Of a stretch of DNA of 64,000 bases, positions 26,269-59,512 are shown one piece after another (the stretch's first letter is position 1; each line of letters opens with the position of its first letter). The notes under the pieces were generated by a model. It made no database searches, had not been told where the DNA came from, and saw nothing but the letters and a program-made list of their open reading frames with translations. The stretch is taken from the IMG/VR virus record IMGVR_UViG_3300031140_000597, positions 1 to 64,000 of that record; one strand, 5' to 3'. Made by a program: the position numbers and the translations under genes. Source of the DNA: an uncultured virus (IMG/VR IMGVR_UViG_3300031140_000597). Lineage: Duplodnaviria; Heunggongvirae; Uroviricota; Caudoviricetes.

Positions 26269-26955
26269 ATGTCAGTATCAAGTAAAATTAAACAGCGCCT
26301 CACTGATGCCGATCATCGACATTGGGCAGGGGATAATATTTCAGAATATATCATGGATGGTGAACACGATGAACTTATTGTAGAACTTACTGAAAAGTTC
26401 GAAGGTGTTCTTAATAGTTTAATAATTGATACAGTCAATGATCCCAATTCGCAAGATACTGGACGACGACTTGCTAAAATGTATGTGACAGAATTAATGA
26501 GTGGGCGTTATTATCCTGCTCCTTCTGCTACTGCATTTCCAAACAATAGCAGTGATCCGTTTAAAGGTATGTTGGTAGTTAGATCTGAAATCAAATCAAT
26601 GTGTTCACATCATCATCAACCTGTAACTGGTGTTGTTTATATTGGCATCTTACCGGAAGATAAAGTAATTGGATTAAGTAAGTACACGCGTATTGCACAA
26701 TGGTGTGCAAGGCGTGGAACGCTTCAAGAAGAACTTGCAAATGATATTGCTCGTGAAATTGAGAAGGCTACCGATAGTAAGCATCTTGCAGTGTATATTC
26801 AAGCCGAGCATGGCTGTTGCACTAATCGAGGCATTATGGCACATAGTTCGTTAACACAAACTACTGTACTTAGAGGTAATTTCTTCGTTAAGGCTTCTGT
26901 TAAAGAAGAGTTCTTTGATAATATTAAAATGCAACAATCATTTGCACCGAGGTAA
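26269..26955 (+). CDS. folE: GTP cyclohydrolase I
   Basis: T..RLAKMY, SMCSHH, VIGLSK..R, R..LQE, EHGC...RG motifs. Confidence 0.96.
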   Translation: MSVSSKIKQRLTDADHRHWAGDNISEYIMDGEHDELIVELTEKFEGVLNSLIIDTVNDPNSQDTGRRLAKMYVTELMSGRYYPAPSATAFPNNSSDPFKGMLVVRSEIKSMCSHHHQPVTGVVYIGILPEDKVIGLSKYTRIAQWCARRGTLQEELANDIAREIEKATDSKHLAVYIQAEHGCCTNRGIMAHSSLTQTTVLRGNFFVKASVKEEFFDNIKMQQSFAPR

Positions 26956-26957
26956 TT

Positions 26958-27503
26958 ATGAATAAAAGAGTATATTACAGTTGGGAAGACGTTGAGCATA
27001 TGCTTGCGACAATCAATAATGAAATGGCAGCCGATGGTTGGCGCCCAGACTACATTGTAGGTATGACACGTGGCGGTCTGGTACCAGCAGTTATGTTGAG
27101 CAACTTGACTGGCATTAAAATGCATGCACTAGGTAAAGATGACACCAATGCGTGGATGTCAGAAGATGCAGTGGGATGGGAAGACACTACTAATGACGGT
27201 GATGCTATCGTTCCAGATGTAAACCATCCTAATAATAGATCTAACATTCTTGTTATCGATGATATCAATCATTCTGGTAAATCTTTTAATTGGCTAAAGT
27301 CTGATTGGAAAAGTACATCGGCTCAACCTGACTTTGCATGGGATGATATCTGGCATGGAAATGTTAGATTTGCATCATTGGTAGACAATGAAGCAAGTTT
27401 ATTCACAGATGTTGATTATGCAGCAATCGAGATGAATAAGATCGACAAGCCTGTATGGTGTGTATTCCCTTGGGAAGCAGAACGCGATTATGGCAACTTA
27501 TAA
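26958..27503 (+). CDS. type I phosphoribosyltransferase (Gpt-like)
   Basis: VGMTRGGLVPA, ILVIDDINHSGKS PRPP loop, W.VFPWE. Confidence 0.88.
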   Translation: MNKRVYYSWEDVEHMLATINNEMAADGWRPDYIVGMTRGGLVPAVMLSNLTGIKMHALGKDDTNAWMSEDAVGWEDTTNDGDAIVPDVNHPNNRSNILVIDDINHSGKSFNWLKSDWKSTSAQPDFAWDDIWHGNVRFASLVDNEASLFTDVDYAAIEMNKIDKPVWCVFPWEAERDYGNL

Positions 27504-27801
27504 TAACCAATCAGATGTATGTGTAGACACAATAGATGGTTCATCTATAACAACTGACTTCATACATCCGAGTTATGCTGTTGGCAGACTAACGTCAGAT
27601 ATGCGTAATAGTGTTATCATAAATACACCAGATGGTAATACTATTGATCTAGTAGAATCATTAAATGAATCCAATATGTTACTAGGTGTTATGACTACCT
27701 TATTGAATAATCTCATCAAAGAGAATCCTAGCATCACTAGTGCACAATCTATTGAGGAATTATTAGATCAGCAAAAAATGATGAATAAGTTAGCCAAATA
27801 A
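27490..27801 (+). CDS. hypothetical protein
   Basis: ATG 27490 overlapping the PRT end. Confidence 0.55.
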   Translation: MATYNNQSDVCVDTIDGSSITTDFIHPSYAVGRLTSDMRNSVIINTPDGNTIDLVESLNESNMLLGVMTTLLNNLIKENPSITSAQSIEELLDQQKMMNKLAK

Positions 27802-27803
27802 GG

Positions 27804-27832
27804 TTGACAAGTAATGATTCTTGCTGTATACT
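27804..27832 (+). promoter_or_regulatory. sigma70-type promoter
   Basis: TTGACA-N17-TATACT with extended -10 TG. Confidence 0.75.
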
Positions 27833-27865
27833 TAATATATAAGTTAATTAAACAGTGAGAACATT

Positions 27866-30625
27866 ATGATTAAATTTAAAAAGACAATTACTGCATTATC
27901 AATTGCATTGGCAATGGGTTTCACAGCAGTACCTATTCAGGCAGAAGCAGCGTATAAGTCATACTATGATTACGCGTCTAGCATCAAACGCCAACGTTCA
28001 CAAATTAATTTCGTAACCACTATGTTAAGAAGTTATACTCGCACTGTTAAAGTATATGGTAATCTTATCAGCAAATATGGCGCTAAGTATGGTCATTACT
28101 CTTGGTTCCGTCCTATCATTCAACGCCACGCATTCTATGAAACAGAAGTAGCGCGTTACACACAATTATTAAATTCCATTCAAGACACATCAGTCACGAT
28201 AGTTTCTTCTTCTACTCGTGTTGAACCATATGTACAAACTACAAATAGCAAGCCAGTATTGATCTCGTCTACTGACACGGTTGAAAAAGAAACTGATGCT
28301 GGTATGATTTCTGAATATGCAGTTTTGACACTGGTGTCTGAAATCATCACTACTGTTCGTACATTTGAAATGACTATTATTGATACATCGTACAGTGATG
28401 GTACAAATGATTCAAAGCGCACAGCAAAACTACTAGACACTACAAACACACCAAATCGTGAAACAACTCGTGATCGTGAATTGATTCGTAGTTATCCTGT
28501 TCCTGTTATTGTGGATGAATCGCCTGTACAAGTAGCAGAAGGCGAAACAGGTATAAAGACAGTCGATGCAATGACGGTTGAAGAATATCTTGCTCGTGAT
28601 GATGTTGATTATTCACAGACAGACACATATCGTCAAGCAGCATGGAATACTAATTCACGCACTAACGCAGATTTCATCGAGCGAGAGAGTGGTTTGGCGC
28701 CTTATGCTAGATCATTAGATGCCATTGGTGCACCAGAAGCATGGGCACGTGGTTGGACAGGCAAGGGATCTATCATTGGTATTGTAGATTCTGGCATTGA
28801 TCTAGATCATAGTGAATTTGCTGGTAAGATTATCGATGCAAAATGTTTCACACGAGCGTGTGATCTTGGTTATGAAACAGTGCACGATATCACGAAGGTT
28901 AGTCATGGAACGCACGTTGCAGGCATCGCATCTGCAAGTTTAGATGGTGTAGGTACCACAGGCGTAGCACCAGATGCAAAGTTATTGATTGCAAAGGCAA
29001 GCACAGGCACCTACGGATCGTTTGATTTAAAAGCCGCAGCAAAGGGTATTGCTTGGGCAGCAGCGAATGGTGCTGATGTCATTAACTTGAGTGCAAACTA
29101 TAATGTAGATACAACATACAAAAATAGCATTCTAGAGATCGGTGATGGATTCTATCGTTCAACTGATCAACGTGGTCGTGATGGAAAAACTTATGAAACG
29201 AATGGGTATTCGTTCTTACAGACAGATTGGTTGCCAGAAGATATGAAAGCAGCGATGGAAGGTCATGAATCTGTTTTAGTTGCAGCCGCTGGTAATCAGG
29301 GTTTAGATTTTAGTACATTCCCTGCGCATTATGCAGTACTTGAAAACGATGATGGTACATTGGCATTAGACGGGCGTGTTATTGTAGCGGGTTCTTATGA
29401 CTTGCGTAGTGAGCAAATTTCTAGATGGAGTAACAAGGCTGGTACTGTATGTTTTGATTATGATGAAACAGCAGACATGTGCAATACTGATCACCGTGTA
29501 AGTGATTACTTTTTGATGGCACCTGGCTCATATGTAGCATCTACTGATAGCAATGGGGAGTATCGTTTAAATACTGGTACATCAATGGCGGCACCTATGA
29601 TCGCTGGTGCAGTCGCAGTGGTCAAGCAGATGTGGCCACACATGAAAGGTGAGAATCTTGCTAAGTTATTATTGAATACTGGTGATAAAGATATTCCTAA
29701 TTATGATGTAAATGTTCACGGACAAGGGCTACTTGATTTGGCAGAAGCAACTACACCACAAGGTGTTGTTGGTATACCTACCACGGGTCGCGTAGAAGGT
29801 GGTAAGACTTCAGTTACGAATTCGGGCACTGCTAGTGTATCGGGTGTTAATATTTCAGCATTGTCATCAATGATGGTAGTTGATGATTATGATCGTGACT
29901 TCTATGTAAACGGCAATGATTTAATTCAAAGTATTGATACTCGTACAGTACATACAACTCATGCAGCACAAAGTGGTATAGCAGCAGATCAGTATGCAGG
30001 CTTCTCTACTGGTATTCGATTATCTGCACAGGGAATTGATTATAGTGTCAGTGATGAAGGTGCACATATTGCTACTACACTTAACGACATTACGATCGGT
30101 GCAGTAGTAGAGAGCAACACATTCTTAGGTAATTATGCAGATAGTATGCTGATCGATGTTAACGGTGCCAATACATTATACATGGGTTACAATAAAGAAT
30201 ATGAAACTAATGGTGTGACTTATTTCGGAGGTGCAAATATTGGTTTAACATCATTGAATGTTGGTGATAATGCAATGATGAAATCTGCAAGTTCATTAGT
30301 AAGTAACTCTGCCACACTTGGTGCTAAGTTTAAAACTGCACATGGTACATTCGGATTTGTTGCAGCACTACCAGTAGCGATCGCCCAAGGTGATGCTAAA
30401 TTTGATGTAGCAGCATCGGTATCGTCAGTGGGTGATATTACCACGAACCATATGACAAGTTCATTGTCATCACAGACGCGTGAGTATAATCTTGGCATGT
30501 TCTATGATACCGCTATTACTGATAACGTAGACATTGAAATGTTTGCAGAAGCACGTAATAACTATACAGGTACAGCAGGATTACTTGCAATGGAAGCAGG
30601 TGTGACGTTAACTGGAACATTCTAA
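27866..30625 (+). CDS. secreted S8 (subtilisin-like) serine protease with possible C-terminal beta-barrel
   Basis: signal peptide; triad motifs IVDSGID, HGTHVAG, AAGN, GTSMAAP; beta-rich C-terminus ending in Phe. Confidence 0.92.
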   Translation: MIKFKKTITALSIALAMGFTAVPIQAEAAYKSYYDYASSIKRQRSQINFVTTMLRSYTRTVKVYGNLISKYGAKYGHYSWFRPIIQRHAFYETEVARYTQLLNSIQDTSVTIVSSSTRVEPYVQTTNSKPVLISSTDTVEKETDAGMISEYAVLTLVSEIITTVRTFEMTIIDTSYSDGTNDSKRTAKLLDTTNTPNRETTRDRELIRSYPVPVIVDESPVQVAEGETGIKTVDAMTVEEYLARDDVDYSQTDTYRQAAWNTNSRTNADFIERESGLAPYARSLDAIGAPEAWARGWTGKGSIIGIVDSGIDLDHSEFAGKIIDAKCFTRACDLGYETVHDITKVSHGTHVAGIASASLDGVGTTGVAPDAKLLIAKASTGTYGSFDLKAAAKGIAWAAANGADVINLSANYNVDTTYKNSILEIGDGFYRSTDQRGRDGKTYETNGYSFLQTDWLPEDMKAAMEGHESVLVAAAGNQGLDFSTFPAHYAVLENDDGTLALDGRVIVAGSYDLRSEQISRWSNKAGTVCFDYDETADMCNTDHRVSDYFLMAPGSYVASTDSNGEYRLNTGTSMAAPMIAGAVAVVKQMWPHMKGENLAKLLLNTGDKDIPNYDVNVHGQGLLDLAEATTPQGVVGIPTTGRVEGGKTSVTNSGTASVSGVNISALSSMMVVDDYDRDFYVNGNDLIQSIDTRTVHTTHAAQSGIAADQYAGFSTGIRLSAQGIDYSVSDEGAHIATTLNDITIGAVVESNTFLGNYADSMLIDVNGANTLYMGYNKEYETNGVTYFGGANIGLTSLNVGDNAMMKSASSLVSNSATLGAKFKTAHGTFGFVAALPVAIAQGDAKFDVAASVSSVGDITTNHMTSSLSSQTREYNLGMFYDTAITDNVDIEMFAEARNNYTGTAGLLAMEAGVTLTGTF

Positions 30626-30642
30626 AATATAACAATAACAAA

Positions 30643-30665
30643 TAGGGACGCAATGCGTCCCTTAG
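30643..30665 (+). terminator. GC-rich hairpin, putative terminator
   Basis: AGGGACGC-AAT-GCGTCCCT. Confidence 0.55.
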
Positions 30666-30681
30666 TCATGAGAAAGAAACA

Positions 30682-31125
30682 ATGAATAATAAACAAGTAG
30701 TAGGATTCACCTGTAGTACATTTGATTTGCTACACTCTGGTCACATACAGATGTTACGTGATGCAAAAGAACACTGTGACTATTTAATATGTGGATTGCA
30801 AATTGATCCTACCATTGATAGATCAGAGAAGAACGCACCCATACAGACAGTGGTTGAACGATATAATCAGTTACAAGCAGTTAAGTACGTAGATGAAATC
30901 ATTCCGTATGCGACTGAGGAAGACCTAAAAGATATACTAGAAATGTATAATATTAATGTCCGTATCTTAGGTGAAGAATATAGAAACAAAGAATTCACAG
31001 GCAAAGATATATGTAGTCGCCGTAGCATACAGTTATTTTTTAACAATCGTGATCATCGTTTTTCTAGCAGTGATTTACGTAAGCGTATAGCAGATAGTCA
31101 AAAGCACAAAGAAGAAATAAAATGA
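30682..31125 (+). CDS. glycerol-3-phosphate cytidylyltransferase-like (TagD family)
   Basis: STFDLLHSGH (HxGH), ER...L..VKYVDE, R.H.FSSS.LR. Confidence 0.9.
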   Translation: MNNKQVVGFTCSTFDLLHSGHIQMLRDAKEHCDYLICGLQIDPTIDRSEKNAPIQTVVERYNQLQAVKYVDEIIPYATEEDLKDILEMYNINVRILGEEYRNKEFTGKDICSRRSIQLFFNNRDHRFSSSDLRKRIADSQKHKEEIK

Positions 31126-31442
31126 AACAAGAATATAGGGTATGGAATTACTTAGAATCGGAAATGACGATTGATGGAAATTGGGTGTCACATAACCATA
31201 AAATGTTTACAGCTAACAAGCGCACCAACCAGAATCATAGTTGTCGTGATATAATGCTTATGTTTCTTACCGACAATCAAGCACCTAGTAACTTCTTATT
31301 AGAGATGGGTGTGTCGTTACGTGTTGAACATACAAGAGATGATAACCTAAGAGAATCAAGATTTGCTATTATTGCAGAAATGACACCTAATGAAAATAGG
31401 TTGTGGGAAGAGCATCGTTTTTTACAGAAATTACAGGCGTAG
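31122..31442 (+). CDS. hypothetical protein
   Basis: ATGA coupling. Confidence 0.6.
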   Translation: MKQEYRVWNYLESEMTIDGNWVSHNHKMFTANKRTNQNHSCRDIMLMFLTDNQAPSNFLLEMGVSLRVEHTRDDNLRESRFAIIAEMTPNENRLWEEHRFLQKLQA

Positions 31443-31457
31443 GTAGAGGAATACATT

Positions 31458-32135
31458 ATGAAGATAAAAATTGGCAAATATCCTGATCGTTGGATTAGCA
31501 GAGTACATACTAACCACATGGAAAAGAAGTATGGTTTCCTATGGGAAATGAACGACAAGGAACTGAACGACAAAGAGCCAGTTGTTCCTACACGGTTTGA
31601 TAACTCAGTTGAGGTGCTTGAAGATTGCTTGCAAACTTTATACAACTGGTCAGTTAACTTGATAGCAGATCGTCAAACACAAACTGTAAAGGTTCATATT
31701 GATAAATGGGATACATGGAGCATGGATTCTACATTAGCCCCTATCATCCATCCAATGCTAATACAACTTAACGCAACCAATCATGGTGCACCTAATGTAT
31801 CATTTACAGATGTGCCTAAAAGATTACGTCCGAGTAAGAAGCAAAGTAACGCATACAATGAAAAGGGCGATGTCGATGACAAGCACTTTGAACGTTGGGA
31901 TTGGATCATGGGCGAAATGATTTGGGCATTTGAACAAAAGTTAGGCGATGATGGGTGGGAACAACAGTATTATAAATATGAAGATATTCCAGTAGATGAA
32001 AAATCAGAAGACTTTAGCGAAAGACTAGGTATTAAACTGGTGTGGGAAGACAATGAAGGTCGTGAGAAGCATCAAGCGAGAATGTCTAATGGGTTTAGAT
32101 TGTTTGGGGTTTATTTTGAGTGCCTTTGGGATTAA
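31458..32135 (+). CDS. conserved hypothetical phage protein
   Basis: IDKWDTWSMD.TLA.II.PML and RWDWIM.EMIWAF motifs of a T4-like phage family. Confidence 0.7.
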   Translation: MKIKIGKYPDRWISRVHTNHMEKKYGFLWEMNDKELNDKEPVVPTRFDNSVEVLEDCLQTLYNWSVNLIADRQTQTVKVHIDKWDTWSMDSTLAPIIHPMLIQLNATNHGAPNVSFTDVPKRLRPSKKQSNAYNEKGDVDDKHFERWDWIMGEMIWAFEQKLGDDGWEQQYYKYEDIPVDEKSEDFSERLGIKLVWEDNEGREKHQARMSNGFRLFGVYFECLWD

Positions 32136-32166
32136 TATGAACAATGGGCGTATAGAAGCGATAATT

Positions 32167-32442
32167 ATGAATAAAGAAAAAATAAAAGAATTGATGGTTA
32201 TCACAGCAGAAGAATGTGGTGAATTGACGCAAGCATGTTGTAAGATATATCGCTGGGATATAGACAGCATATATGAAAATGGTTCAAACAAACAGCGATT
32301 ACTTGAGGAAGCAGGTGATGTTATGGCGATGATTTCTATAATGGTTGATAATGATCTATTGACAGAACAAGAATTAAATGATAGAATAGATTATAAGAAA
32401 CGAAAATTAAAAGAGTGGAGTAGTTTATTTGATGAAACTTAG
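32167..32442 (+). CDS. MazG-like NTP pyrophosphohydrolase
   Basis: EECGEL.Q..CK..R and LLEEAGDV motifs. Confidence 0.8.
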   Translation: MNKEKIKELMVITAEECGELTQACCKIYRWDIDSIYENGSNKQRLLEEAGDVMAMISIMVDNDLLTEQELNDRIDYKKRKLKEWSSLFDET

Positions 32443-33316
32443 ATACAGTGAAGCATTCTATTCGCTTCAAGGTGAAGGTAAATTTGTAGGTGTGCCTAGT
32501 GTATTCTTGCGTACTTTCGGTTGCAATTTTCGCTGCAAATCATTTTCAATGTCGAGTGAAGAACGTGAATCTATCAAAGACGAACGATACAATCCAGAAG
32601 TAAAGAAATTGATTGATGATGGTGTACATATAAATGCTACGCTATTGGAAGACTTACCTATCATTCATACAGGCTGTGATACATACGCGAGTATCTACCC
32701 AGAGTTCAAGCACTTGATGTTTGATCGTACTGTAGATGAAGTAGTTGATCACTTGTTATCGCTTACGCCAAACGGTAAGTGGATGATGGATAATGGTCAA
32801 GATATTCACTTAGTGATTACTGGTGGCGAACCTTTATTGGCATGGCAACGTATGTATGTGGATATATTTGAACATCCTCGTATGAGTGATTTAAGAAATG
32901 TTACATTTGAAACAAACACAACTCAGTCATTACATGACGAGTTATTTGAATATCTAGATAATAAAGATACAATCACAGTAACGTGGAGTTGTTCACCTAA
33001 ACTATTGGTTAGTGGCGAATCTCATGAAGATGCGATTAAGCCTGGTGTTGCTGTTCAGTATCGTCTAGTTACTGGTAATAATTTATATCTTAAATTTGTT
33101 GTATCTAATGCGGCAGATGTAGCAGAAGTAGATGAGGTAGTGACAGAGTATCGTAATTTTGGTATTGAATGTCCTGTATATCTTATGCCAATAGGTGGTC
33201 GCTCAGAAGAGTACGATTTATCAGTAAGAGATATTGCACAGTTGGCATTAGAAAAAGGTTATAGATTTAGCCCAAGATTGCACATAGATTTATATGGTAA
33301 TAATTGGGGTACATAA
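32429..33316 (+). CDS. queE: 7-carboxy-7-deazaguanine synthase (radical SAM)
   Basis: E.FYSLQGEG..VG.PSVFLR..GCNFRC...GCDT, VITGGEP, FETN, SPKL, R.SPRLH..L.G. Confidence 0.9.
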   Translation: MMKLRYSEAFYSLQGEGKFVGVPSVFLRTFGCNFRCKSFSMSSEERESIKDERYNPEVKKLIDDGVHINATLLEDLPIIHTGCDTYASIYPEFKHLMFDRTVDEVVDHLLSLTPNGKWMMDNGQDIHLVITGGEPLLAWQRMYVDIFEHPRMSDLRNVTFETNTTQSLHDELFEYLDNKDTITVTWSCSPKLLVSGESHEDAIKPGVAVQYRLVTGNNLYLKFVVSNAADVAEVDEVVTEYRNFGIECPVYLMPIGGRSEEYDLSVRDIAQLALEKGYRFSPRLHIDLYGNNWGT

Positions 33317-52594: not shown

Positions 52595-52650
52595 GTTTAT
52601 ATTAGACAGAACTGTAACGTATATCTGACCTTGTTCTAGACAAAAGGGTT

Positions 52651-52768
52651 TGGGTTGTAGCGCAGTCTGGGAGAAGCGTCTATCCTCGGTGATGTAGCAT
52701 TAGATTAATTACCTAATACCCTGCATTACATAGATAGAAGGTCGTGGGTTCGAATCCCTCCAACTCCG
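52651..52768 (+). tRNA. tRNA-Pro-like element with about 41-nt insertion in the anticodon loop (intron-containing or pseudo-tRNA)
   Basis: GTAGCGCAGTCTGG D-arm, CTATC/GATAG anticodon stem, GGTTCGAATCC T-arm; no CCA. Confidence 0.6.
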
Positions 52769-52819
52769 TTAGAGTTTTGTCTAATATAAATATAGTTTAA
52801 CTAAGCGTAGGGAAAAGTA

Positions 52820-53054: not shown

Positions 53055-53083
53055 TTGACAAGAACGAAATAGTCTGTTACACT
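53055..53083 (+). promoter_or_regulatory. sigma70 promoter P1 of tRNA block 1
   Basis: TTGACA-N17-TACACT; about 40-nt direct repeat with P2. Confidence 0.75.
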
Positions 53084-53168: not shown

Positions 53169-53197
53169 TTGACAAGATAGAAATAGTCTGTTATACT
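53169..53197 (+). promoter_or_regulatory. sigma70 promoter P2 of tRNA block 1
   Basis: TTGACA-N17-TATACT. Confidence 0.8.
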
Positions 53198-53246
53198 TAT
53201 AACATAAACAGTTAAAGATAACTGTAATAAACAAGAGAACGAAACG

Positions 53247-53360
53247 ATGTTAAACACATTCTGTAATTTACATAGTAAACTAGATAGTCAACGCTGGTAT
53301 CAGCCGGAGATTATGAATGTGCCCGCGAGTTTCTTAGACGAGGATGATGGATTATATTAA
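53247..53360 (+). CDS. putative attenuator leader peptide (37 aa, MLNTFCNLHSKLDSQRWYQPEIMNVPASFLDEDDGLY)
   Basis: lies between promoter and terminator; contains all 20 amino acids; its 3' part is complementary to the terminator 5' arm. Confidence 0.7.
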   Translation: MLNTFCNLHSKLDSQRWYQPEIMNVPASFLDEDDGLY

Positions 53361-53386
53361 GCCATTAAATCCAATAAATTTCTAAG

Positions 53387-53420
53387 AAACCCGCCAAGCG
53401 AAAGCAAAGCGGGTTTTTTT
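53387..53420 (+). terminator. intrinsic terminator / attenuator upstream of tRNA block 1
   Basis: AAACCCGC...GCGGGTTTTTTT. Confidence 0.85.
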
Positions 53421-53585
53421 ATGACAGTGTAAAAGTAGAAGCGGAACGAGGTCGCTGAGATTACACTTTAAATAATATCTCTAAAATGGCGTGTTGTAGG
53501 ATTGAAAGTTCTAGTTAGAATGAGTAAAATTATGACAGTATATTTTTATACTAAAAAGCATTCATAGAGTGTTTTTCAGTATAAT

Positions 53586-53659
53586 GCTCGGTTAGCTCAA
53601 AGGTAGAGCCATCGCTCGATAAGCGATAGACGAAGGATCGTTACCTTCACTGAGTACCA
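53586..53659 (+). tRNA. tRNA-Ile(GAT)
   Basis: cloverleaf, ATCGC-TCGATAA-GCGAT, CCA; C33 and A54 non-canonical. Confidence 0.85.
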
Positions 53660-53706
53660 TTTTAAAATTGGAGATTCACTGCCATAAGTGTGAACTATAA
53701 AATTAC

Positions 53707-53783
53707 GGATTGTTAGCATAGTGGCTTAATGCAGCACCTTCATACGGTGAAGATCAATGGTTCAAATCCATTACAATCCACCA
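53707..53783 (+). tRNA. tRNA-Met(CAT)
   Basis: CACC-TTCATAC-GGTG, GGTTCAAATCC, CCA. Confidence 0.85.
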
Positions 53784-53792
53784 CAAGTTTTA

Positions 53793-53868
53793 CAGGGTAT
53801 AGCTGAGTTTGGTTTAGCACGGGCCTTGGATGCCTGAGACGAGGGTTCAAGTCCTTCTTCCCTGACCA
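53793..53868 (+). tRNA. tRNA-Pro(TGG)
   Basis: CGGGC-CTTGGAT-GCCTG, CCA; A37. Confidence 0.88.
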
Positions 53869-53922
53869 TTAGAGATAGTGTATATCTCGTGTCTTTTATT
53901 AGATATAAAAATACAATTTAAT

Positions 53923-53995
53923 ACTCTTGCCAGTGGAACTGGCAGTTGGGTTTCGACCCCGACTTGCGAATGTTCGATTCATTCCAGGAGTGCCA
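53923..53995 (+). tRNA. tRNA-Arg(TCG), atypical D-arm
   Basis: TTGGG-TTTCGAC-CCCGA, TGTTCGATTCA, GCCA. Confidence 0.75.
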
Positions 53996-53997
53996 AA

Positions 53998-54133
53998 TTT
54001 ACTATGCTGGCTGCCGTCTACGTTTCCGGAAACTGACGTTAAATATTGAGGTTCAACTCCTCGGATACATTAAGGAAGGCTTGGTGTATCGCGTTACAGG
54101 CAACGTAAGGGTTCGACTCCCAAATAGTAAACC
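53998..54133 (+). ncRNA. tRNA-like structured RNA with two T-arms
   Basis: terminal stem TTTACTAT/ATAGTAAA; GAGGTTCAACTCCTC and GGGTTCGACTCCC; 11-bp internal hairpin. Confidence 0.5.
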
Positions 54134-54141
54134 GCTTTGAT

Positions 54142-54219
54142 GGTGATCGTAGCATAACTGGCAAATGCCCAAGGTTGTGAACCTTGTAGATCCGGGATCA
54201 TACCCCGGCGATCACACCA
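54142..54219 (+). tRNA. tRNA-His(GTG)
   Basis: CAAGG-TTGTGAA-CCTTG, G-1, CCA; T-loop GATCATA. Confidence 0.88.
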
Positions 54220-54229
54220 CTTATTTTAT

Positions 54230-54315
54230 GGAAGATGATCTAGTCTGGGACTAGGATGACTTGCTAAGTCAATCGGCTCGAAAGGGTTTGGGATCGTAAC
54301 CTACTTCTTCCGCCA
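54230..54315 (+). tRNA. tRNA-Ser(GCT)
   Basis: TGAC-TTGCTAA-GTCA, long variable arm, GCCA. Confidence 0.85.
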
Positions 54316-54321
54316 CTTTTA

Positions 54322-54398
54322 GCGCGGTTGCCAGAGTAGCCAACGGAGCGGCTTGCAAACCCGTACAACCATCGGTGCAAATCCGATACCGCGCTCCA
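54322..54398 (+). tRNA. tRNA-Cys(GCA)
   Basis: loop TTGCAAA, U73, CCA. Confidence 0.88.
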
Positions 54399-54404
54399 AT
54401 TTTA

Positions 54405-54431
54405 AGTTCCGTTCGTCTATCGGTTAGGACA
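54405..54431 (+). pseudogene. 5' fragment of a tRNA-Glu-type gene
   Basis: GTTCCGTTCGTCTATCGGTTAGGACA (acceptor 5' strand + D-arm) with no 3' half. Confidence 0.5.
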
Positions 54432-54446
54432 TACGGGAAGAATTAC

Positions 54447-54523
54447 ATCCCCATAGATTACGTTGGTTAAATCACTAGACTTTCACTCTAGCGAACCGGG
54501 ATCGTCGCCCGGTGGGGATACCA
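54447..54523 (+). tRNA. tRNA-Glu(TTC)
   Basis: CTAGA-CTTTCAC-TCTAG, CCA. Confidence 0.88.
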
Positions 54524-54525
54524 TT

Positions 54526-54628
54526 TTTGTCTTATAGTTTAATATGGCATTTGGGTATGACGATACTCAAGAATAGAATCTTGCAATCAGCGAGAGATAC
54601 AGGTATTGCATAATCCTGTTAAGACAAA
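54526..54628 (+). ncRNA. degenerate tRNA-like element with expanded D and T loops
   Basis: TTTGTCTTA/TAAGACAAA stem; TTGGGTAT/ATACTCAA hairpin; TCTTGC/GCGAGA arm; ACAGG/CCTGT arm. Confidence 0.45.
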
Positions 54629-54639
54629 TTATTTTTAAT

Positions 54640-54714
54640 GCATCGGTAGTGTCAATGGAAACACGCGAGATTCCAAACTTCGTATTCTAGGTTCAAGTCC
54701 TAGTCGGTGTGCCA
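54640..54714 (+). tRNA. tRNA-Trp(CCA)
   Basis: loop TTCCAAA, GGTTCAAGTCC, GCCA. Confidence 0.88.
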
Positions 54715-54720
54715 CATTAA

Positions 54721-54821
54721 GGTAGTTAAGCAGTTGAGAACCATATCGTGAAACCTACGGGGGAGTTGGTATTGGAACAAATAGTTCGCTGCTCAAGAGG
54801 GTGTTGACCTCTACTGCCACC
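54721..54821 (+). ncRNA. tRNA-like element (acceptor + T-arm, rearranged core)
   Basis: GGTAGT/ACTGCC-ACC, AGAGG-GTGTTGA-CCTCT, AGCAG/CTGCT. Confidence 0.4.
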
Positions 54822-54826
54822 CTTTT

Positions 54827-54925
54827 TATCTTGTTGCTTAATTAAAGCAGTGGAATCCCTCATACATCGTCAATGCTATGAGAATGATGTTTCCATGCAT
54901 GTAGGTGCAAATCCTACCAAGATAA
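54827..54925 (+). ncRNA. tRNA-like element with 35-nt anticodon loop
   Basis: TATCTTG/CAAGATA, D-arm GCTT/AAGC, TGGAA/TTCCA, T-arm GTAGG-TGCAAAT-CCTAC. Confidence 0.55.
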
Positions 54926-54936
54926 ATTATTTTTAA

Positions 54937-55022
54937 GCAGGATACGACTCATGGTGAGACAGCGGATTGTAAATCCGTAGCGTGTAATGCGCAAGTAGGT
55001 TCAATTCCTTCATCCTGCACCA
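54937..55022 (+). tRNA. tRNA-Tyr(GTA)
   Basis: GCGGA-TTGTAAA-TCCGT, long variable arm, CCA. Confidence 0.88.
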
Positions 55023-55029
55023 CTTTTAA

Positions 55030-55107
55030 GCCGCAGTGACCCAAATAGGTAGAGGTGCTGGTTTTAGAAACCAGATGTTGTAGGTTCGATCCCTACTTGC
55101 GGTACCA
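55030..55107 (+). tRNA. tRNA-Leu(TAG), short variable arm
   Basis: CTGGT-TTTAGAA-ACCAG, CCA. Confidence 0.88.
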
Positions 55108-55142: not shown

Positions 55143-55466
55143 ATGGCAATTACATTATCTAAAGAAGCATCAGAGCGCATATCAGATTACATGATCAACA
55201 GAGGACCTACGTACGGTGTACGTGTAGGTGTAAGAACAACAGGTTGTTCTGGTCTTGCATACATAGTAGAGTTTGTCGATAATATTGACGAGAATGATAC
55301 AGTCTTTGTATCAAATGAAATAAGTATTGTAGTAGATCCTAAAGGTTTAACATACCTTGACGGTACTGAGTTGGATTATGGACGTGATGGACTCAACGAA
55401 GGATTCAGATTTAATAATCCAAACGCAAAAGACGAATGCGGTTGTGGCGAAAGTTTCACTGTATAA
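55143..55466 (+). CDS. iscA: A-type Fe-S cluster carrier IscA/HesB
   Basis: GVR.GV.TTGCSGLAY, LDG.ELDY, F.F.NPN...ECGCGESF. Confidence 0.95.
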   Translation: MAITLSKEASERISDYMINRGPTYGVRVGVRTTGCSGLAYIVEFVDNIDENDTVFVSNEISIVVDPKGLTYLDGTELDYGRDGLNEGFRFNNPNAKDECGCGESFTV

Positions 55467-55484: not shown

Positions 55485-55513
55485 TTGACAAGAGAAGTAT
55501 AATGCGTTACAAT
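55485..55513 (+). promoter_or_regulatory. sigma70-type promoter
   Basis: TTGACA-N17-TACAAT. Confidence 0.7.
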
Positions 55514-55626
55514 AGCACAACGTTTTGAGAAAGACATAAAGTTTTTTGATAAATAAATAAGAAGTTTATGCTGACGTATTTCAAGTCACTAATTTAGAAA
55601 TAGTTTAAAATAGTTTAAAATAGTAG

Positions 55627-55655
55627 TTGACAATAGTTAATAAGTTTGATATAAT
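55627..55655 (+). promoter_or_regulatory. sigma70 promoter of ncRNA/tRNA block 2
   Basis: TTGACA-N17-TATAAT with AT-rich UP-like repeats (AAATAGTTTA). Confidence 0.8.
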
Positions 55656-55665
55656 AGTAGAACAA

Positions 55666-55694
55666 GTTGAGAGATCAACACGCTCTTTAAAAAT
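55666..55694 (+). promoter_or_regulatory. rrn-like boxB-boxA antitermination site
   Basis: GTTGA-GAGA-TCAAC GNRA hairpin followed by CGCTCTTTAAAAAT. Confidence 0.7.
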
Positions 55695-55700
55695 AGTTTG

Positions 55701-55796
55701 TTTTAATATGTATTATTGTTGATGAAAGTAGGGCTTGATGTTGGAAGTAGAACCATTAAGGTGTCTGACGATAGTTAACAATAATATATTTTAAAA
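55701..55796 (+). ncRNA. stem-enclosed small RNA candidate 1
   Basis: long inverted repeat ATGTATTATTGTTGA / TTAACAATAATATAT around an approximately 50-nt core. Confidence 0.45.
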
Positions 55797-55812
55797 TGAA
55801 TTAAAATAGTTA

Positions 55813-55841
55813 TTGACATTGTTATGAAACTTTGTTATACT
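55813..55841 (+). promoter_or_regulatory. sigma70-type promoter
   Basis: TTGACA-N17-TATACT. Confidence 0.75.
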
Positions 55842-55853
55842 ATTAAAGTGTTC

Positions 55854-56005
55854 TTTTGTATACACATTAGGTAGATACTGATTTTAGTAGGTATGGTGAT
55901 TCGTGCTGAACGTTGAAGGGAATCGCTAAATGACAAGGGACTTGCTGTGTGGGATTAATCATCCCTGTCGTAGACAAGCGGTTGTTAAATAATGTGTATG
56001 CAAAA
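55854..56005 (+). ncRNA. structured ncRNA, paralog A
   Basis: TTTTGTATACACATTA/TAATGTGTATGCAAAA closing stem; core shared with paralog B. Confidence 0.6.
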
Positions 56006-56015
56006 GTGTATTTTA

Positions 56016-56161
56016 ATATATGCTATTGGGTAGAGCCAGATCGTAGTAAGCATAAGGGTGCGTGCTGAAATTTGAAGGGAATCGCTGAACGACAATAGGT
56101 TTAATGTATACAGACTAATCCCTGTATATTGGAACCAACGATAGTTAAACGATAGTATATT
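56016..56161 (+). ncRNA. structured ncRNA, paralog B
   Basis: ATATGCTATTG/CGATAGTATAT closing stem; CGTGCTGAA..TTGAAGGGAATCGCT.AA.GACAA core. Confidence 0.6.
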
Positions 56162-56189: not shown

Positions 56190-56265
56190 TCCTGAATAGC
56201 TCAGTTGGTAGAGCAGTAGACTGTTAATCTATTTGTCGTTGGTTCGAGCCCAACTTCAGGAGCCA
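56190..56265 (+). tRNA. tRNA-Asn(GTT)
   Basis: canonical cloverleaf, loop CTGTTAA, GCCA. Confidence 0.93.
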
Positions 56266-56365
56266 TTTTCATAGTTAGTTTATTCCTTCTTACAGGATAT
56301 CCTGAGAAGATACGAAGAAAACTGATAGCATCACATCTGAAACAATGACGATGTGGTGCGGTTGC

Positions 56366-56439
56366 GCCCGATTAGTTAAGTGGTATAACAATTGCCTTGT
56401 AAGCATTAGTTGGTGGTTCGATTCCATCATTGGGCACCA
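56366..56439 (+). tRNA. tRNA-Thr(TGT)
   Basis: loop CTTGTAA, CCA. Confidence 0.9.
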
Positions 56440-56446
56440 TTTTTTA

Positions 56447-56581
56447 AAGTAGTATTAAGTAGTTACCCTAGCGGCTCATAAGAGAGAGTCGGTTCATTGC
56501 ATATAGTTACAGTTATGTGTAGTCAGCGAAATGTGCATCTGTAAGTGCATGTAGACTCGGCTAACTTCTTAATATTATTTT
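56447..56581 (+). ncRNA. multibranched structured RNA candidate
   Basis: AAGTAGTATTAAG/CTTAATATTATTT closing stem with three internal hairpins. Confidence 0.45.
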
Positions 56582-56582
56582 T

Positions 56583-56658
56583 GCTGACGTAGCTCACTCG
56601 GGAGAGCGCGACCCTGTCAAGGTCGAGGTAGTGGGATCGAAACCCATCGTTGGCGCCA
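56583..56658 (+). tRNA. tRNA-Asp(GTC)
   Basis: CGACC-CTGTCAA-GGTCG, GCCA. Confidence 0.92.
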
Positions 56659-56705
56659 CATTTAAGATCAAATTTCTTGACCAGAAGTTTGAAACAACGT
56701 TTTAT

Positions 56706-56796
56706 AGAGAGTTGGCAGAGTGGTCGAATGCACTGGTCTTGAAAACCAGCAAGGGTTCATAGCCCTTCGAGAGTTCGAACCTCTCACTCTCTGCCA
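56706..56796 (+). tRNA. tRNA-Ser(TGA)
   Basis: CTGGT-CTTGAAA-ACCAG, long variable arm, GCCA. Confidence 0.93.
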
Positions 56797-56873
56797 TTTT
56801 AGATAGTGCTAAATAGATAGTTCGTCAGATGATGTAACTATTTTATAGGAATAAACCATGTATAATATAATTT

Positions 56874-56948
56874 GTCCCATTAGCATAATGGATAGTGCAG
56901 TGGATTTCTACTCCATAGATCAGGGTTCGACTCCTTGATGGGACACCA
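56874..56948 (+). tRNA. tRNA-Arg(TCT)
   Basis: GTGGA-TTTCTAC-TCCAT, CCA. Confidence 0.92.
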
Positions 56949-56964
56949 ATTTTAAAGAGCGTAC

Positions 56965-57048
56965 AGTATCATCGCTTGTCAAGTAGATACTCAGGTAACA
57001 TCAGGCATAGCCCCTCATGATGTTATTAGGTGAGGGGGTGAGACAAGC
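56965..57048 (+). ncRNA. double-pseudoknot RNA candidate
   Basis: four crossing helices: AGTATC/GATACT, GCTTGTC/GACAAGC, TAACATCA/TGATGTTA, CCCCTCA/TGAGGGG. Confidence 0.5.
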
Positions 57049-57058
57049 ACATTTTTAT

Positions 57059-57128
57059 ATCATCATTTGCCAATTGGTAAGGTTAGGCGAAGTAGTCGTT
57101 ACTGGTTCGATTCCAGTTGGTGATACCA
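57059..57128 (+). ncRNA. CCA-ending tRNA-like RNA with a collapsed anticodon arm
   Basis: ATCATCA/TGGTGAT-ACCA, D-loop AATTGGTAA, ACTGG-TTCGATT-CCAGT; no 5-bp/7-nt anticodon arm. Confidence 0.6.
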
Positions 57129-57135
57129 ATTTTAA

Positions 57136-57208
57136 TGCGGGATGCTAAGGTATGCACTCCGGGCTCATAACCCGCGAGGTTGAGTTTCGATTACTCTTTC
57201 CGCTACCA
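57136..57208 (+). tRNA. tRNA-fMet(CAT), initiator-like
   Basis: GGG/CCC anticodon stem, loop CTCATAA, 1:72 mismatch, CCA. Confidence 0.8.
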
Positions 57209-57213
57209 CATTA

Positions 57214-57291
57214 GGGCCTATAGCTTAGTTGGTTTAAAGCAGACGACTCATAATCGTAAGATCCTTGGTTCAAGTCCAAGTAGGCCCACCA
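57214..57291 (+). tRNA. tRNA(CAT), probably Ile2 (lysidine type)
   Basis: GGGCCTATAGCT body typical of Ile2; loop CTCATAA; CCA. Confidence 0.85.
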
Positions 57292-57338
57292 CTATAATTT
57301 ATTTTTGTATAAGATTTGTCTTATACATTTACAGAAAT

Positions 57339-57429
57339 CGCTTCTGTTATCGTGACATACAACGACAACGATAGCGTTACACTCGTAACAAATACATGTT
57401 AATTATGCGAGTTGACGATAACAGAGGCG
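57339..57429 (+). ncRNA. long hairpin RNA with central bubble
   Basis: 15-bp stem CGCTTCTGTTATCGT/ACGATAACAGAGGCG plus inner ACTCGTA/TGCGAGT. Confidence 0.45.
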
Positions 57430-57438
57430 GCGCTATTC

Positions 57439-57513
57439 GCGAGTATCGTATAATGGTTATTACGGGAGGTTTCCAACCTTTTGATGTCAGTTCGATTCTG
57501 ACTACTCGCTCCA
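57439..57513 (+). tRNA. tRNA-Gly(TCC)
   Basis: GGAGG-TTTCCAA-CCTTT, TCCA. Confidence 0.92.
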
Positions 57514-57535
57514 ATATGTAAGAAGTAAAGAACAT

Positions 57536-57621
57536 GCCTTGGTGGTGGAATTAGGTATACACATCAGATTTAAAATCTGACGACTTCGGTCATGCGGGTT
57601 CAAGTCCCGCTCAAGGCACCA
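57536..57621 (+). tRNA. tRNA-Leu(TAA)
   Basis: TCAGA-TTTAAAA-TCTGA, variable arm, CCA. Confidence 0.93.
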
Positions 57622-57643: not shown

Positions 57644-58375
57644 ATGAATAGTTTGTTTGAATACACAGAAGCAGTAGAAGAGTGCAAAGGTTCGTTAGAA
57701 GGTGATGGTGATAATAAGTTATTTACCGAAGCAGAGCGTGTTCTATCTACTGAAATAAACAACGAAGAAAAGATATTAAAGCATCCGATATTACATGAAG
57801 CGTTTGATCGCATCGTAGAGCAACATGTACCAAATCAATCAACTGCATTTTTATCATTATGCACTGCTACTCGTCCTTATAACAAGAGCAAGAAGTGGAA
57901 AGGATTCATCAACAAGTTTGGTGGTAAGGTAGATATGATAGTTGTATCTAATGGTGGTATGATGCCACAACAGTTTTGGAAAAGTTGGCCCTATTTGAAT
58001 TACGATGGGGGTGATCATTATGATGTTAAAATGTATCAAGATATTATGCATGAACGATTATTGAAGTTTTTTAGGAAGCACAATTACAGTAATGTTATTG
58101 CAAACTTTAGACCTAATTTAATCAATCATCAACCAGCACATGATGCGCTTTCTATTCTGAAAGAAGAAGGTAGCATTGGTGATTATATTGTAATGCCTAA
58201 TCAGGAGTTGTATGATAAGGCACAGTCATTAGGTTGGCGACCACCACAAGGTCAAGGTGATATGTTCCCTGATTTAACCAATACGATACTGAGTGCATTA
58301 ACTGCTCAAGTGGAAGAATTCGGGTATGATGAAGATTTATTTACTGTTCATGAAAAATTAAAGTACAATAAGTAG
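57644..58375 (+). CDS. ArcS-like (DUF5591) protein, putative archaeosine synthase core
   Basis: FLSLCTATRPYNKSK resembles the L.PCS..KPYS.S catalytic-Cys motif of ArcS; VVS.GG..P......P...YD. Confidence 0.6.
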   Translation: MNSLFEYTEAVEECKGSLEGDGDNKLFTEAERVLSTEINNEEKILKHPILHEAFDRIVEQHVPNQSTAFLSLCTATRPYNKSKKWKGFINKFGGKVDMIVVSNGGMMPQQFWKSWPYLNYDGGDHYDVKMYQDIMHERLLKFFRKHNYSNVIANFRPNLINHQPAHDALSILKEEGSIGDYIVMPNQELYDKAQSLGWRPPQGQGDMFPDLTNTILSALTAQVEEFGYDEDLFTVHEKLKYNK

Positions 58376-58420: not shown

Positions 58421-59095
58421 TTGTTCAAGGGAATATATAATCTTTTTAAGCAGAAAGAAGAGCCTATAGCAGAGATGATTGAAATCCCTGTTAAAAACCC
58501 AGAATTACCTCATATTGTGTTTATACACGGTGCTGGATGTAGTCATCGCAGTTGGAATTATATATTAGCAAAACTTAACCCTACCCGTTACACTATGTTA
58601 GAGTATTCGGTAGATGATAAGTTTTATACTAATCTAAATAAACTGTCGACTATTGTTGGTCAAATACATGATAGGGATTTATTTATAATATCTCATTCTA
58701 TGGGTGGTATATATGCATTGCATTTATGTCAGAGTTTTAGTCATAGAGTAATTGGTTCAATATCTATCGCGACTCCGTTTGCGGGATCGAGAACAGCAGA
58801 TTTTGTAAAATATGTATATCCATCGTATATATTGTTTCGAGATGTTGGAGTAAGAAGTGCGCCTATTATGAGGTGTCATGATATTACAATCAATGTACCT
58901 TGGACACAGATAGTTACGACAGATGGGCATGTACCGTGGCATAAGGGTGAGAACGATGGTGTTGTGACGGTAGAAAGTCAGCGTCATCGTAAAGATATAG
59001 ATTATGTAGAAATACATGTAACCCACCATGAAGCGTTGGTGAGTGATGAAGCATTAGATATTATAAAAGAAAAATTAGATATCAAAAACGCTTGA
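58421..59095 (+). CDS. alpha/beta hydrolase
   Basis: FIHGAG, SHSMGG nucleophile elbow, TPFAGS, NDGVV, H. Confidence 0.88.
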   Translation: MFKGIYNLFKQKEEPIAEMIEIPVKNPELPHIVFIHGAGCSHRSWNYILAKLNPTRYTMLEYSVDDKFYTNLNKLSTIVGQIHDRDLFIISHSMGGIYALHLCQSFSHRVIGSISIATPFAGSRTADFVKYVYPSYILFRDVGVRSAPIMRCHDITINVPWTQIVTTDGHVPWHKGENDGVVTVESQRHRKDIDYVEIHVTHHEALVSDEALDIIKEKLDIKNA

Positions 59096-59120
59096 CAGAA
59101 CACGTTACATAGTGTATAAT
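59092..59120 (+). promoter_or_regulatory. sigma70-type promoter for Ala-Ala-Thr tRNAs
   Basis: TTGACA-N17-TATAAT. Confidence 0.75.
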
Positions 59121-59169
59121 AATTTATTAGATAAATAAAGTAGTAAGTATGAAGTGGTTACATAATCGT

Positions 59170-59245
59170 GGGGATATAGCTCAGTTGGGAGAGCGACTGC
59201 CTTGCACGCAGTAGGTCGTAGGTTCGATCCCTATTATCTCCACCA
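59170..59245 (+). tRNA. tRNA-Ala(TGC) copy 1
   Basis: GGGGATATAGCTCAG, G3:U70, loop CTTGCAC, CCA. Confidence 0.95.
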
Positions 59246-59294
59246 TTATGTGACTATTAGTCTAATAAATAAAGTAGCAAGTATGAAGTACAAT

Positions 59295-59370
59295 GGGGAT
59301 ATAGCTCAGTTGGGAGAGCGACTGCCTTGCACGCAGTAGGTCGTAGGTTCGATCCCTATTATCTCCACCA
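59295..59370 (+). tRNA. tRNA-Ala(TGC) copy 2 (identical)
   Basis: same sequence as copy 1. Confidence 0.95.
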
Positions 59371-59405
59371 TTTTAAAATTAAAGAGATATCAAATTTCTT
59401 TAAAA

Positions 59406-59481
<76 letters not shown>

Positions 59482-59488
59482 AATAATC

Positions 59489-59512
59489 AGACTCCCTTCG
59501 GGGAGTTTTTTG
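59489..59512 (+). terminator. intrinsic terminator
   Basis: ACTCCC-TTCG-GGGAGT followed by T-run. Confidence 0.9.

Follow-up and report, generated by a model that had tools for sequence, protein, structure and literature searches.

Amino-acid operons are controlled by leader-peptide attenuators, among them trpL and hisL and the multivalent thrL and ilvL. Why phages carry transfer RNA (tRNA) genes is a long-standing question. Cleavage-resistant phage tRNAs are established—T5 tRNA-Lys withstands PARIS AriB (PMC11464382), and a phage tRNA-Thr resists P2 OLD, with a shorter anticodon stem reported as a resistance feature (PMC12445682)—and resistant phage tRNAs have been proposed as a general hypothesis (PMC10264068); changes of this kind are also reported to be able to raise the susceptibility of a phage tRNA to cleavage (PMC13056530). 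Irregular Ser and His tRNAs are reported from phage clusters (PMC5389517), and evasion of retron Eco7 by T5-like phages is described as depending on a strong promoter (PMC11555353). In a cellular setting, the L-array trn operon of Anabaena PCC 7120 holds spare tRNAs that are reported to stay silent until translation is impaired, with 23 of 26 genes charged in vivo (PMC8421152). Here we describe block 1, a tRNA array at positions 53,586–55,107 of a 64,000-nucleotide (nt) stretch of DNA (the window) that is part of a 75-kb uncultured virus record, IMGVR_UViG_3300031140_000597; coordinates are those of the window unless a locus is named, and the promoter matches, leader, terminators, spacer, IscA gene, and tRNA blocks mapped below, with the tRNA-like RNAs and Glu stub of block 1, lie on its plus strand. 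We consider it fairly probable that block 1, which lies in a marine T4-like jumbo phage, is an attenuator-gated operon of spare tRNAs, filled with functional variants from a lineage-wide, fast-swapping pool. The operon is likely inducible, and a tiny gene containing all 20 amino acids probably switches on its tRNAs when translation slows. The locus makes the question of why phages carry tRNAs testable in two ways.

The leader region upstream of block 1

A sigma70-type promoter match (11/12, with an extended -10) at 53,169–53,197 is kept in variants of the locus and has an upstream copy (10/12) at 53,055–53,083; we infer that the leader RNA likely starts near 53,205. Between this promoter and an intrinsic terminator (53,387–53,420; a GC stem followed by U7) sits a short open reading frame (ORF), P0001 (53,247–53,360), whose 37 codons include all 20 amino acids, 19 of them within the first 27 codons—a diversity reached by 22 of 46,600 windows from the phage's own proteins, at a window length picked post hoc. 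Runs of control codons are absent, and single codons of 19 amino acids stand in their place. A metagenome scan for the leader returned 11 loci, and the seven full-length variant loci preserve its frame and stop position in four distinct peptides, two of which lack Gly. Leader codons 25–31 (53,321–53,338) contain the predicted 5' strand of an antiterminator, invariant in variant alignment A1, with partners at 53,381–53,390 and in the 3' arm of the terminator. One terminator stem pair is altered on both sides in L205 and L210, and the conserved spacer that follows (53,425–53,584), predicted to form three hairpins, has 3 of its 36 predicted pairs changed on both sides.

The antiterminator fold is lower than the terminator fold by 2.3, 2.3, 0.8, and 2.3 kcal/mol in four variants. 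With a masking ribosome on the ORF, the predicted probability of the terminator is 0.02–0.05 for stalls at codons 1–8 and 16–20 and at least 0.95 (0.95–1.0) from codon 22 on; by equilibrium folding, the two structures are mutually exclusive and depend on ribosome position. We infer from this a switch set by ribosome speed. Host RNA polymerase would initiate near 53,205; a ribosome translating at normal speed would cover the antiterminator strand, and the terminator would form, whereas a stall within roughly the first 21 codons, where a charged tRNA is scarce, would leave that strand free and allow transcription to enter the tRNAs. Such a gate would be a leader attenuator of the trp/his type with almost every amino acid sampled, and the leader would offer a direct read-out of whether the phage monitors host tRNA supply. 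That block 1 is inducible, as a first-pass annotation of this DNA had proposed, is backed by its anatomy—the leader of 20 amino acids, the poised antiterminator, their conservation, and their recurrence in other phages.

Contigs of relatives from RNA libraries (three studies) cover the leader and one spans the terminator; such contigs carry no information on strand or abundance and may derive in part from DNA. These contigs are sparse over the flanking protein genes, an observation that we did not use as evidence. For a T-box or other riboswitch, Rfam gave nothing above cut-off, and its Trp_leader and Leu_leader families match the terminator weakly (21.8 and 18 bits, below cut-off). A tblastn search of phages with the leader peptide gave three chance-level matches. 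Two further candidates were rejected: a 15-codon ORF from 53,313, under which any translation would terminate transcription, was dropped when the in-frame start at 53,247 was found, and a match between the leader's AGA codon and a gated Arg(TCT), seen in the near-identical L206, L209, and L211, is broken by L212.

In a screen of the fetched loci, amino-acid-rich ORFs precede 11 of 28 terminators standing before tRNAs, as against 2 of 292 other terminators. These 11 ORFs fall into a few families, several of them mutually unrelated, and unrelated amino-acid-rich ORFs at other tRNA arrays lie 47–58 nt before their terminators. In Vibrio phage D69 (L089:3148–3311) and Caulobacter phage CcrColossus (L068:3520–3674), a short ORF and a terminator precede a tRNA block whose amino acids are abundant in the leader; both phages are cultured and are possible laboratory models, and a GOLLD RNA lies directly upstream of the D69 leader. 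A second amino-acid-rich leader family (L019, L014, L032, L039, L016, L080, and L084) stands about 160 nt before a terminator ahead of Ile, with up to 20 amino-acid types in 26 codons 3' of a TATAAATA motif and a sigma70-type promoter match past the terminator. An unrelated phage (G007:C1:16300–40700; L220, L221; the L046/L082 array) has a 42-codon leader with 19 amino acids within 26 codons at the head of an array in which T-loops are rewired in 35 of 41 tRNAs (A54-U58, A54-A58, C19-G56, and U19-A56, with matching D-loop changes). Terminators of like shape also lie between a promoter and tRNA-Gly, Ser, Arg, or Met genes in small phage contigs (L101, L105, L117, L120, L123, L127, L136, and others), and there the leader ORF is absent.

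Variant tRNAs of block 1

Block 1 comprises 11 tRNAs, four longer tRNA-like RNAs, and one 5' stub of a tRNA-Glu. Every oddity named in the first-pass annotation was found in the sequence; its inventory stands as regards tRNA features, to which the four longer RNAs and the stub are additions. All 11 genes have a 7-nt anticodon loop and an encoded 3' CCA, and nine pass the gathering score of the Rfam tRNA family RF00005 (36.1–63.2 bits); no match is returned for Arg(TCG) or Ser(GCT), both of which nevertheless fold as cloverleaves. The standard elbow (U54-A58, G18-U55, G19-C56) is replaced in 5 of 11, either by A54-U58 or by G55 with AG.

The block opens with tRNA-Ile(GAT) (53,586–53,659), which has the anticodon loop TCGATAA (C33) and the T-loop GATCGTT (A54-U58); L205, L206, L209, L210, L211, and L215 carry a U33 allele. 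Elongator tRNA-Met(CAT) (53,707–53,783) has a G27·A43 mismatch and C38, and T5 shares its loop together with a 27:43 mismatch. tRNA-Pro(TGG) (53,793–53,868) carries A37, and tRNA-Arg(TCG) (53,923–53,995) is 73 nt long and its D hairpin is capped by a GGA triloop, a fold that ACG and TCG homologues retain. tRNA-His(GTG) (54,142–54,219) combines an encoded G-1 (54,142) and A73 with the T-loop GATCATA (A54-U58), and C73 alleles are present in variants. Ser(GCT) (54,230–54,315) retains G73 and a variable arm alongside a long D stem with a triloop, A27·A43 and U7·U66 mismatches, and the T-loop GATCGTA (A54-U58), and Cys(GCA) (54,322–54,398) has a C31·C39 mismatch and the T-loop GTGCAAA, in which G55 occurs with AG replacing the D-loop GG. 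The Glu stub (54,406–54,430) is the first 25 nt of a canonical gene that is intact in variants; a different gene, tRNA-Glu(TTC) (54,447–54,523; T-loop GATCGTC, A54-U58), follows. An A31·C39 mismatch marks tRNA-Trp(CCA) (54,640–54,714), and phi-ST2 and D69 share its loop and a 31:39 mismatch. tRNA-Tyr(GTA) (54,937–55,022) has a single T-stem mismatch and no listed oddity, and tRNA-Leu(TAG) (55,030–55,107) has A37 and a variable region of 5 nt, like Felix O1 and phi-ST2; L209, L211, and L215 carry a long-arm allele.

Among the tRNA-like RNAs, the first (53,999–54,133) has two T-loop-like hairpins, paired ends, and homologues in L212, L205, and L013. Two are recognized by fold only—one (54,529–54,626) with an acceptor-like stem, several hairpins, and no clear anticodon, the other (54,721–54,821) multibranched—and the last (54,828–54,924) has D and T arms, an extended central arm, and homologues in L205 and L203. 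The same acceptor and T arm recur in a Tyr(GTA)-like gene of L212 (3730–3804, reverse strand) and L205 (3864–3938) that has a short arm and G37 and lacks CCA. A further tRNA-like RNA upstream of the leader (52,650–52,769; 24.7 bits) has a hairpin inserted in its anticodon arm; contigs from RNA libraries cover it in a relative that carries several substitutions. Intron and transfer-messenger RNA calls made by ARAGORN at relaxed score were rejected as noise, useful just as pointers to tRNA-like elements.

Judged from covariation and conservation, the oddities of block 1 are selected and not products of decay, and its tRNAs are likely functional variants, in keeping with what the first-pass annotation had supposed. 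The four GATC T-loops amount to a single paired swap, A54 with U58. Across the 79 distinct lineage tRNAs parsed by ARAGORN, which are kin and span Ile, His, Glu, Gln, Ser, and Phe, U54-A58 occurs 61 times, A54-U58 14 times, A54-A58 four times, and U54-U58 never; the D-loop GG is retained in 0 of 5 lineage tRNAs with G55 versus 73 of 74 with U55. In 470 other viral tRNAs, U58 is paired with A54 in eight of nine cases, six of those eight from one array (L046). Bacterial genomes yield at least 121 A54-U58 tRNA matches; 45 of 80 such loci are single tRNAs, mostly His, Lys, and Met. The 73-nt length and D hairpin of the odd Arg are kept in nine loci, including another T4-like lineage (L007, L008); three of its stems show compensatory changes and the anticodon is always ACG or TCG, and a homologue of the odd Ser exists with a rebuilt D stem.

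The first-pass proposal that these tRNAs are modification-independent is consistent with two of the features. TruB is reported to accept 53-GUUYRANYC-61 (PMC7912444), a pattern that the A54-U58 loops fail, which would fit independence of that modification. Charging of tRNA-Pro is reported to fall 17-fold with unmodified G37 (PMC8643618), and A37, which offers TrmD no G37, would sidestep this need if the tRNA is charged at all. As for the short Leu, the long arm is described as unnecessary for E. coli Leu identity (PMC9976931).

Most block-1 features are shared with cultured phages (T5, Felix O1, phi-ST2), and anticodon-arm changes of the same type also occur in other phages. In a comparison of 135 distinct tRNAs from T5, T4, Felix O1, phi-ST2, D69, and Kpn24-P3 plus Turkey5, A37 occurs in four of five Leu(TAG) genes and a short arm in 7 of 12 Leu genes; C33-Ile is found in phi-ST2, and Kpn24-P3 carries the Ile T-loop GATCGTTA. 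Pro A37 is present in none of six cultured Pro(TGG) genes, in all five distinct lineage Pro genes, and in 6 of 14 from other viral loci, which are no random sample because they were selected by C33-Ile, a pattern that matches 74 viral stretches. His A73 occurs in two of six lineage genes and 1 of 15 others. Behind a near-identical leader, the allele in each slot varies from array to array: Ile has U33 or C33, His has C73 or A73, Leu(TAG) has a short or long arm, Arg has ACG or TCG, and Cys and Glu are canonical or odd. The window holds the oddest set, with seven of eight non-Ile tRNAs flagged versus 56–83% in variants. Alleles that naturally alternate at one position of the array (Ile C33/U33, His A73/C73, Glu, Cys, and Leu with short or long arm) would serve as built-in controls for resistance.

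Block 1 also differs from the later blocks of the window. Listed oddities, drawn up from block 1 itself, are carried by 10 of its 11 tRNAs and by 4 of the 12 in later blocks (Fisher p = 0.009); odd T-loops alone occur in 5 of 11 versus 2 of 12 (p = 0.19). RF00005 bits, which are independent of that choice, give 52.9 versus 66.2 for tRNAs with a match (p = 0.0014) and medians of 45.6 versus 65.5 for all 23, with the two no-match tRNAs set to 0 (p = 0.002). The contrast also emerged when each tRNA was set against same-anticodon tRNAs of T5, T4, Felix O1, phi-ST2, D69, and Kpn24-P3, with median differences of -5.1 (block 1) versus +4.7 bits (later; p = 0.018), the two no-match tRNAs being set to 10 bits and Met-type references assigned by reading. 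The nine block-1 matches (median 52.9) nevertheless fall within the spread of cultured phages (median 55.2, quartiles 48–61, n = 97), so the contrast is partly due to unusually canonical later blocks. By phage standards, block 1 ranges from ordinary to moderately odd, apart from two genes that are strongly remodelled. The first-pass description of most later tRNAs as textbook fails for Thr (U28·U42), Asp (T-loop GATCGAA), Ile2 (a 27:43 mismatch), and an initiator-type Met (57,136–57,208; 20.6 bits), and for a tRNA-like element (57,059–57,128; 26.4 bits) that has an acceptor, a T arm, and CCA without an anticodon arm.

Oddness, gating, and the rival explanations

The first-pass annotation had treated oddness as a property of lying behind the attenuator, a view that the wider sample does not support. 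In L203, where no leader was found, 12 of 16 tRNAs are flagged and orthologous odd genes are mixed with canonical ones, variants of the gated locus carry canonical alleles, and canonical tRNAs make up most of other arrays behind leaders. Across 82 distinct arrays of at least six tRNAs, the median share of odd T-loops is 0.12 with a leader (n = 8) versus 0.09 where none was found (n = 74; p = 0.47), by a strict screen that misses block-matched leaders and scored L046 as having none, its head lying outside the locus; restricting the comparison to arrays with the head present (8 versus 57) gives p = 0.67. We conclude that there is mostly no general coupling of gate with oddness and that any link is weak.

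These results bear directly on a coupled counter-defence, in which the attenuator releases purpose-built nuclease-resistant tRNAs and gating and oddness co-evolve. Within this genome, oddness is greater in the gated block than in those without a gate, even when isotype-matched, and the two most T-loop-rewired arrays in the sample, that of G007 and L351 (14 of 27), are both headed by amino-acid-rich leaders; set against this are the lack of overall association, the leaderless L203, a variant (L209) that bypasses the gate, and the flagged shares of seven arrays with other leaders (20–42%) and of the gated blocks of D69 (3 of 11) and CcrColossus (1 of 9) versus T5 (11 of 24), and we regard this explanation as unlikely. 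Matched elbow swaps spanning several amino acids do suggest pressure on the T-loop. We know of no indication that the anticodon nucleases invoked by the first-pass annotation read the elbow, where most block-1 T-loop changes fall. A two-layer form of counter-defence, which we offer only tentatively, would have the leader sense a shortage of almost any charged tRNA and release elbow-rewired tRNAs (A54-U58, A18-G55); its equally speculative second part is that the rewired elbow escapes an undescribed host system that reads T-loops, with alleles cycling as hosts change. Relaxed selection, by which a rarely transcribed block would drift or decay and its oddities be near-neutral or damaging, would suit a gated block that sees less frequent expression, the two tRNAs without an Rfam match, the Glu stub and several tRNA-like elements within the block, and the damaged Ile copies of variants. 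It appears very improbable in view of changes that occur as matched pairs, intact CCA ends, an odd Arg common to another T4-like lineage, and the recurrence of Pro A37 and C33-Ile in other viruses.

Equally improbable, in our view, is that there is no attenuator and that 53,205–53,420 yields an independent small RNA or serves as a leader under Q-type antitermination, with block 1 transcribed from a promoter at 53,502 or by protein-mediated read-through; this would leave unexplained the all-amino-acid ORF with its kept frame and the unrelated amino-acid-rich ORFs before terminators at other arrays. It draws on the leaderless terminators of small phage contigs and on the folding of the full-length leader into the terminator at equilibrium. 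The promoter match in question (53,502–53,530) is weak (10/12), but its hexamers are invariant across seven variants and it lies 3' of the terminator, where it could permit ungated transcription; L209 has a perfect match 3' of the terminator. Both facts also weigh against the attenuator-gated operon that we favour, as do several others. The ribosome-stall model is an equilibrium model; it gives mixed terminator probabilities (0.27–0.84) for stalls at codons 9–15, a weaker switch in L205 (0.34–0.61 versus 0.96–1.0), and termination for stalls at Ile22 and Met23, yet Ile and Met tRNAs open the block. The invariant part of the leader yields no covariation because the variants are close kin. Damaged extra Ile copies in L206, L209, and L211 indicate that some decay occurs in such arrays, and the Pro and His tRNAs of block 1 may be poorly charged, since G37 (Pro) and C73 (His) are among the identity elements listed for bacteria (PMC9976931); the same source gives A73 as typical of His in some alphaproteobacteria without G-1. 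Under the attenuator-gated reading, the tRNAs would be functional variants drawn from a pool whose members the phage lineage exchanges one slot at a time. The changes in these tRNAs preserve the fold while replacing near-universal elbow and anticodon-arm letters. The pressure would most likely come from host tRNA-targeting defences or scarce modification, and oddness would be a property of alleles and lineage that the gate neither causes nor requires.

The phage, its neighbouring genes, and known systems

A 192-kb contig matches the window region at 99.97% identity, and its genes for a T4-type capsid protein, a portal, and a prohead protease lead us to assign the source to a T4-like jumbo phage; all 24 runs containing the stretch are marine or seawater metagenomes. 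A BLAST search of the array against cultured phages gave just short tRNA and IscA matches and no cultured relative. IscA, IscS, and IscU score above their NCBIfam cut-offs and therefore suggest a proteobacterial host. The IscA gene (55,143–55,466) ends block 1, and IscA or relatives lie within the tRNA array in several variants; other Fe-S assembly genes on the phage are an NfuA-like domain (201–512) and IscS and IscU (L200:4679–6364), with many radical-SAM genes adjacent. Genes for GTP cyclohydrolase I and QueE-like and DUF5591/ArcS-like proteins (26,269–33,316 and 57,644–58,375), along with a gene of the PTPS family at another site on the 192-kb contig, likely make up a 7-deazaguanine pathway. 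A Pfam scan that took in 52 ORFs from the window and 98 from the relative, a contig estimated at 52% complete of which about 10 kb past the window was outside the scan, found no tRNA-handling enzyme.

Three strong sigma70-type promoter matches (55,485, 55,627, and 55,813; 55,485–55,841) precede block 2, ahead of which no leader-terminator was found. Directly 3' of the 55,627 promoter, 55,682–55,692 matches the boxA motif of rRNA operons, and a structured non-coding motif in two copies 74% alike, without an Rfam match, lies between the promoters and tRNA-Asn (55,845–56,160). Block 2 (56,190–57,621) encodes Asn, Thr, Asp, Ser(TGA), Arg(TCT), initiator-type Met, Ile2-type CAT, Gly, and Leu(TAA), four of the nine with a listed oddity, and long hairpins or multibranch folds lie between its tRNAs (56,272–56,365, 56,448–56,572, and 57,300–57,438). 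Block 3 (59,092–59,508) consists of a 12/12 promoter match, Ala, Ala, and Thr, all canonical, and a terminator.

Literature searches, in which most subscription journals lay outside the scope, turned up no paper on a leader attenuator at phage tRNA genes and none on elbow rewiring or an elbow-reading defence. Like the resistant phage tRNAs, those of block 1 belong to an array and have altered anticodon stems and loops, with features that recur in T5, Felix O1, phi-ST2, D69, and Kpn24-P3, and by precedent nuclease resistance is one plausible purpose; in contrast to them, 5 of 11 changes fall in the T-loop and elbow instead of the anticodon arm. Cas12a3 is described as touching the T-arm backbone and not the loop bases (PMC12851939). 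Where Eco7 evasion in T5-like phages is reported to depend on a strong promoter (PMC11555353), block 1 stands behind a putative gated leader. It resembles the Anabaena L-array as a supernumerary tRNA array, one whose induction would be comparable, but is phage-borne with a predicted translated leader as its gate, whereas the L-array is cellular and the main text describing it does not use the word attenuation (PMC8421152). As in the annotations of T5 RNA1, RNA2, and RNA3 and T4 rnaC and rnaD, longer tRNA-like RNAs are interspersed among the tRNAs, a likeness of layout. With the attenuators of amino-acid operons, the locus shares a promoter, a short ORF, a predicted antiterminator overlapping that ORF, and a GC hairpin with a U tract; it departs from them in that their leaders carry runs of one to three amino acids, whereas that of block 1 has single codons for nearly all amino acids and its output is tRNA genes.

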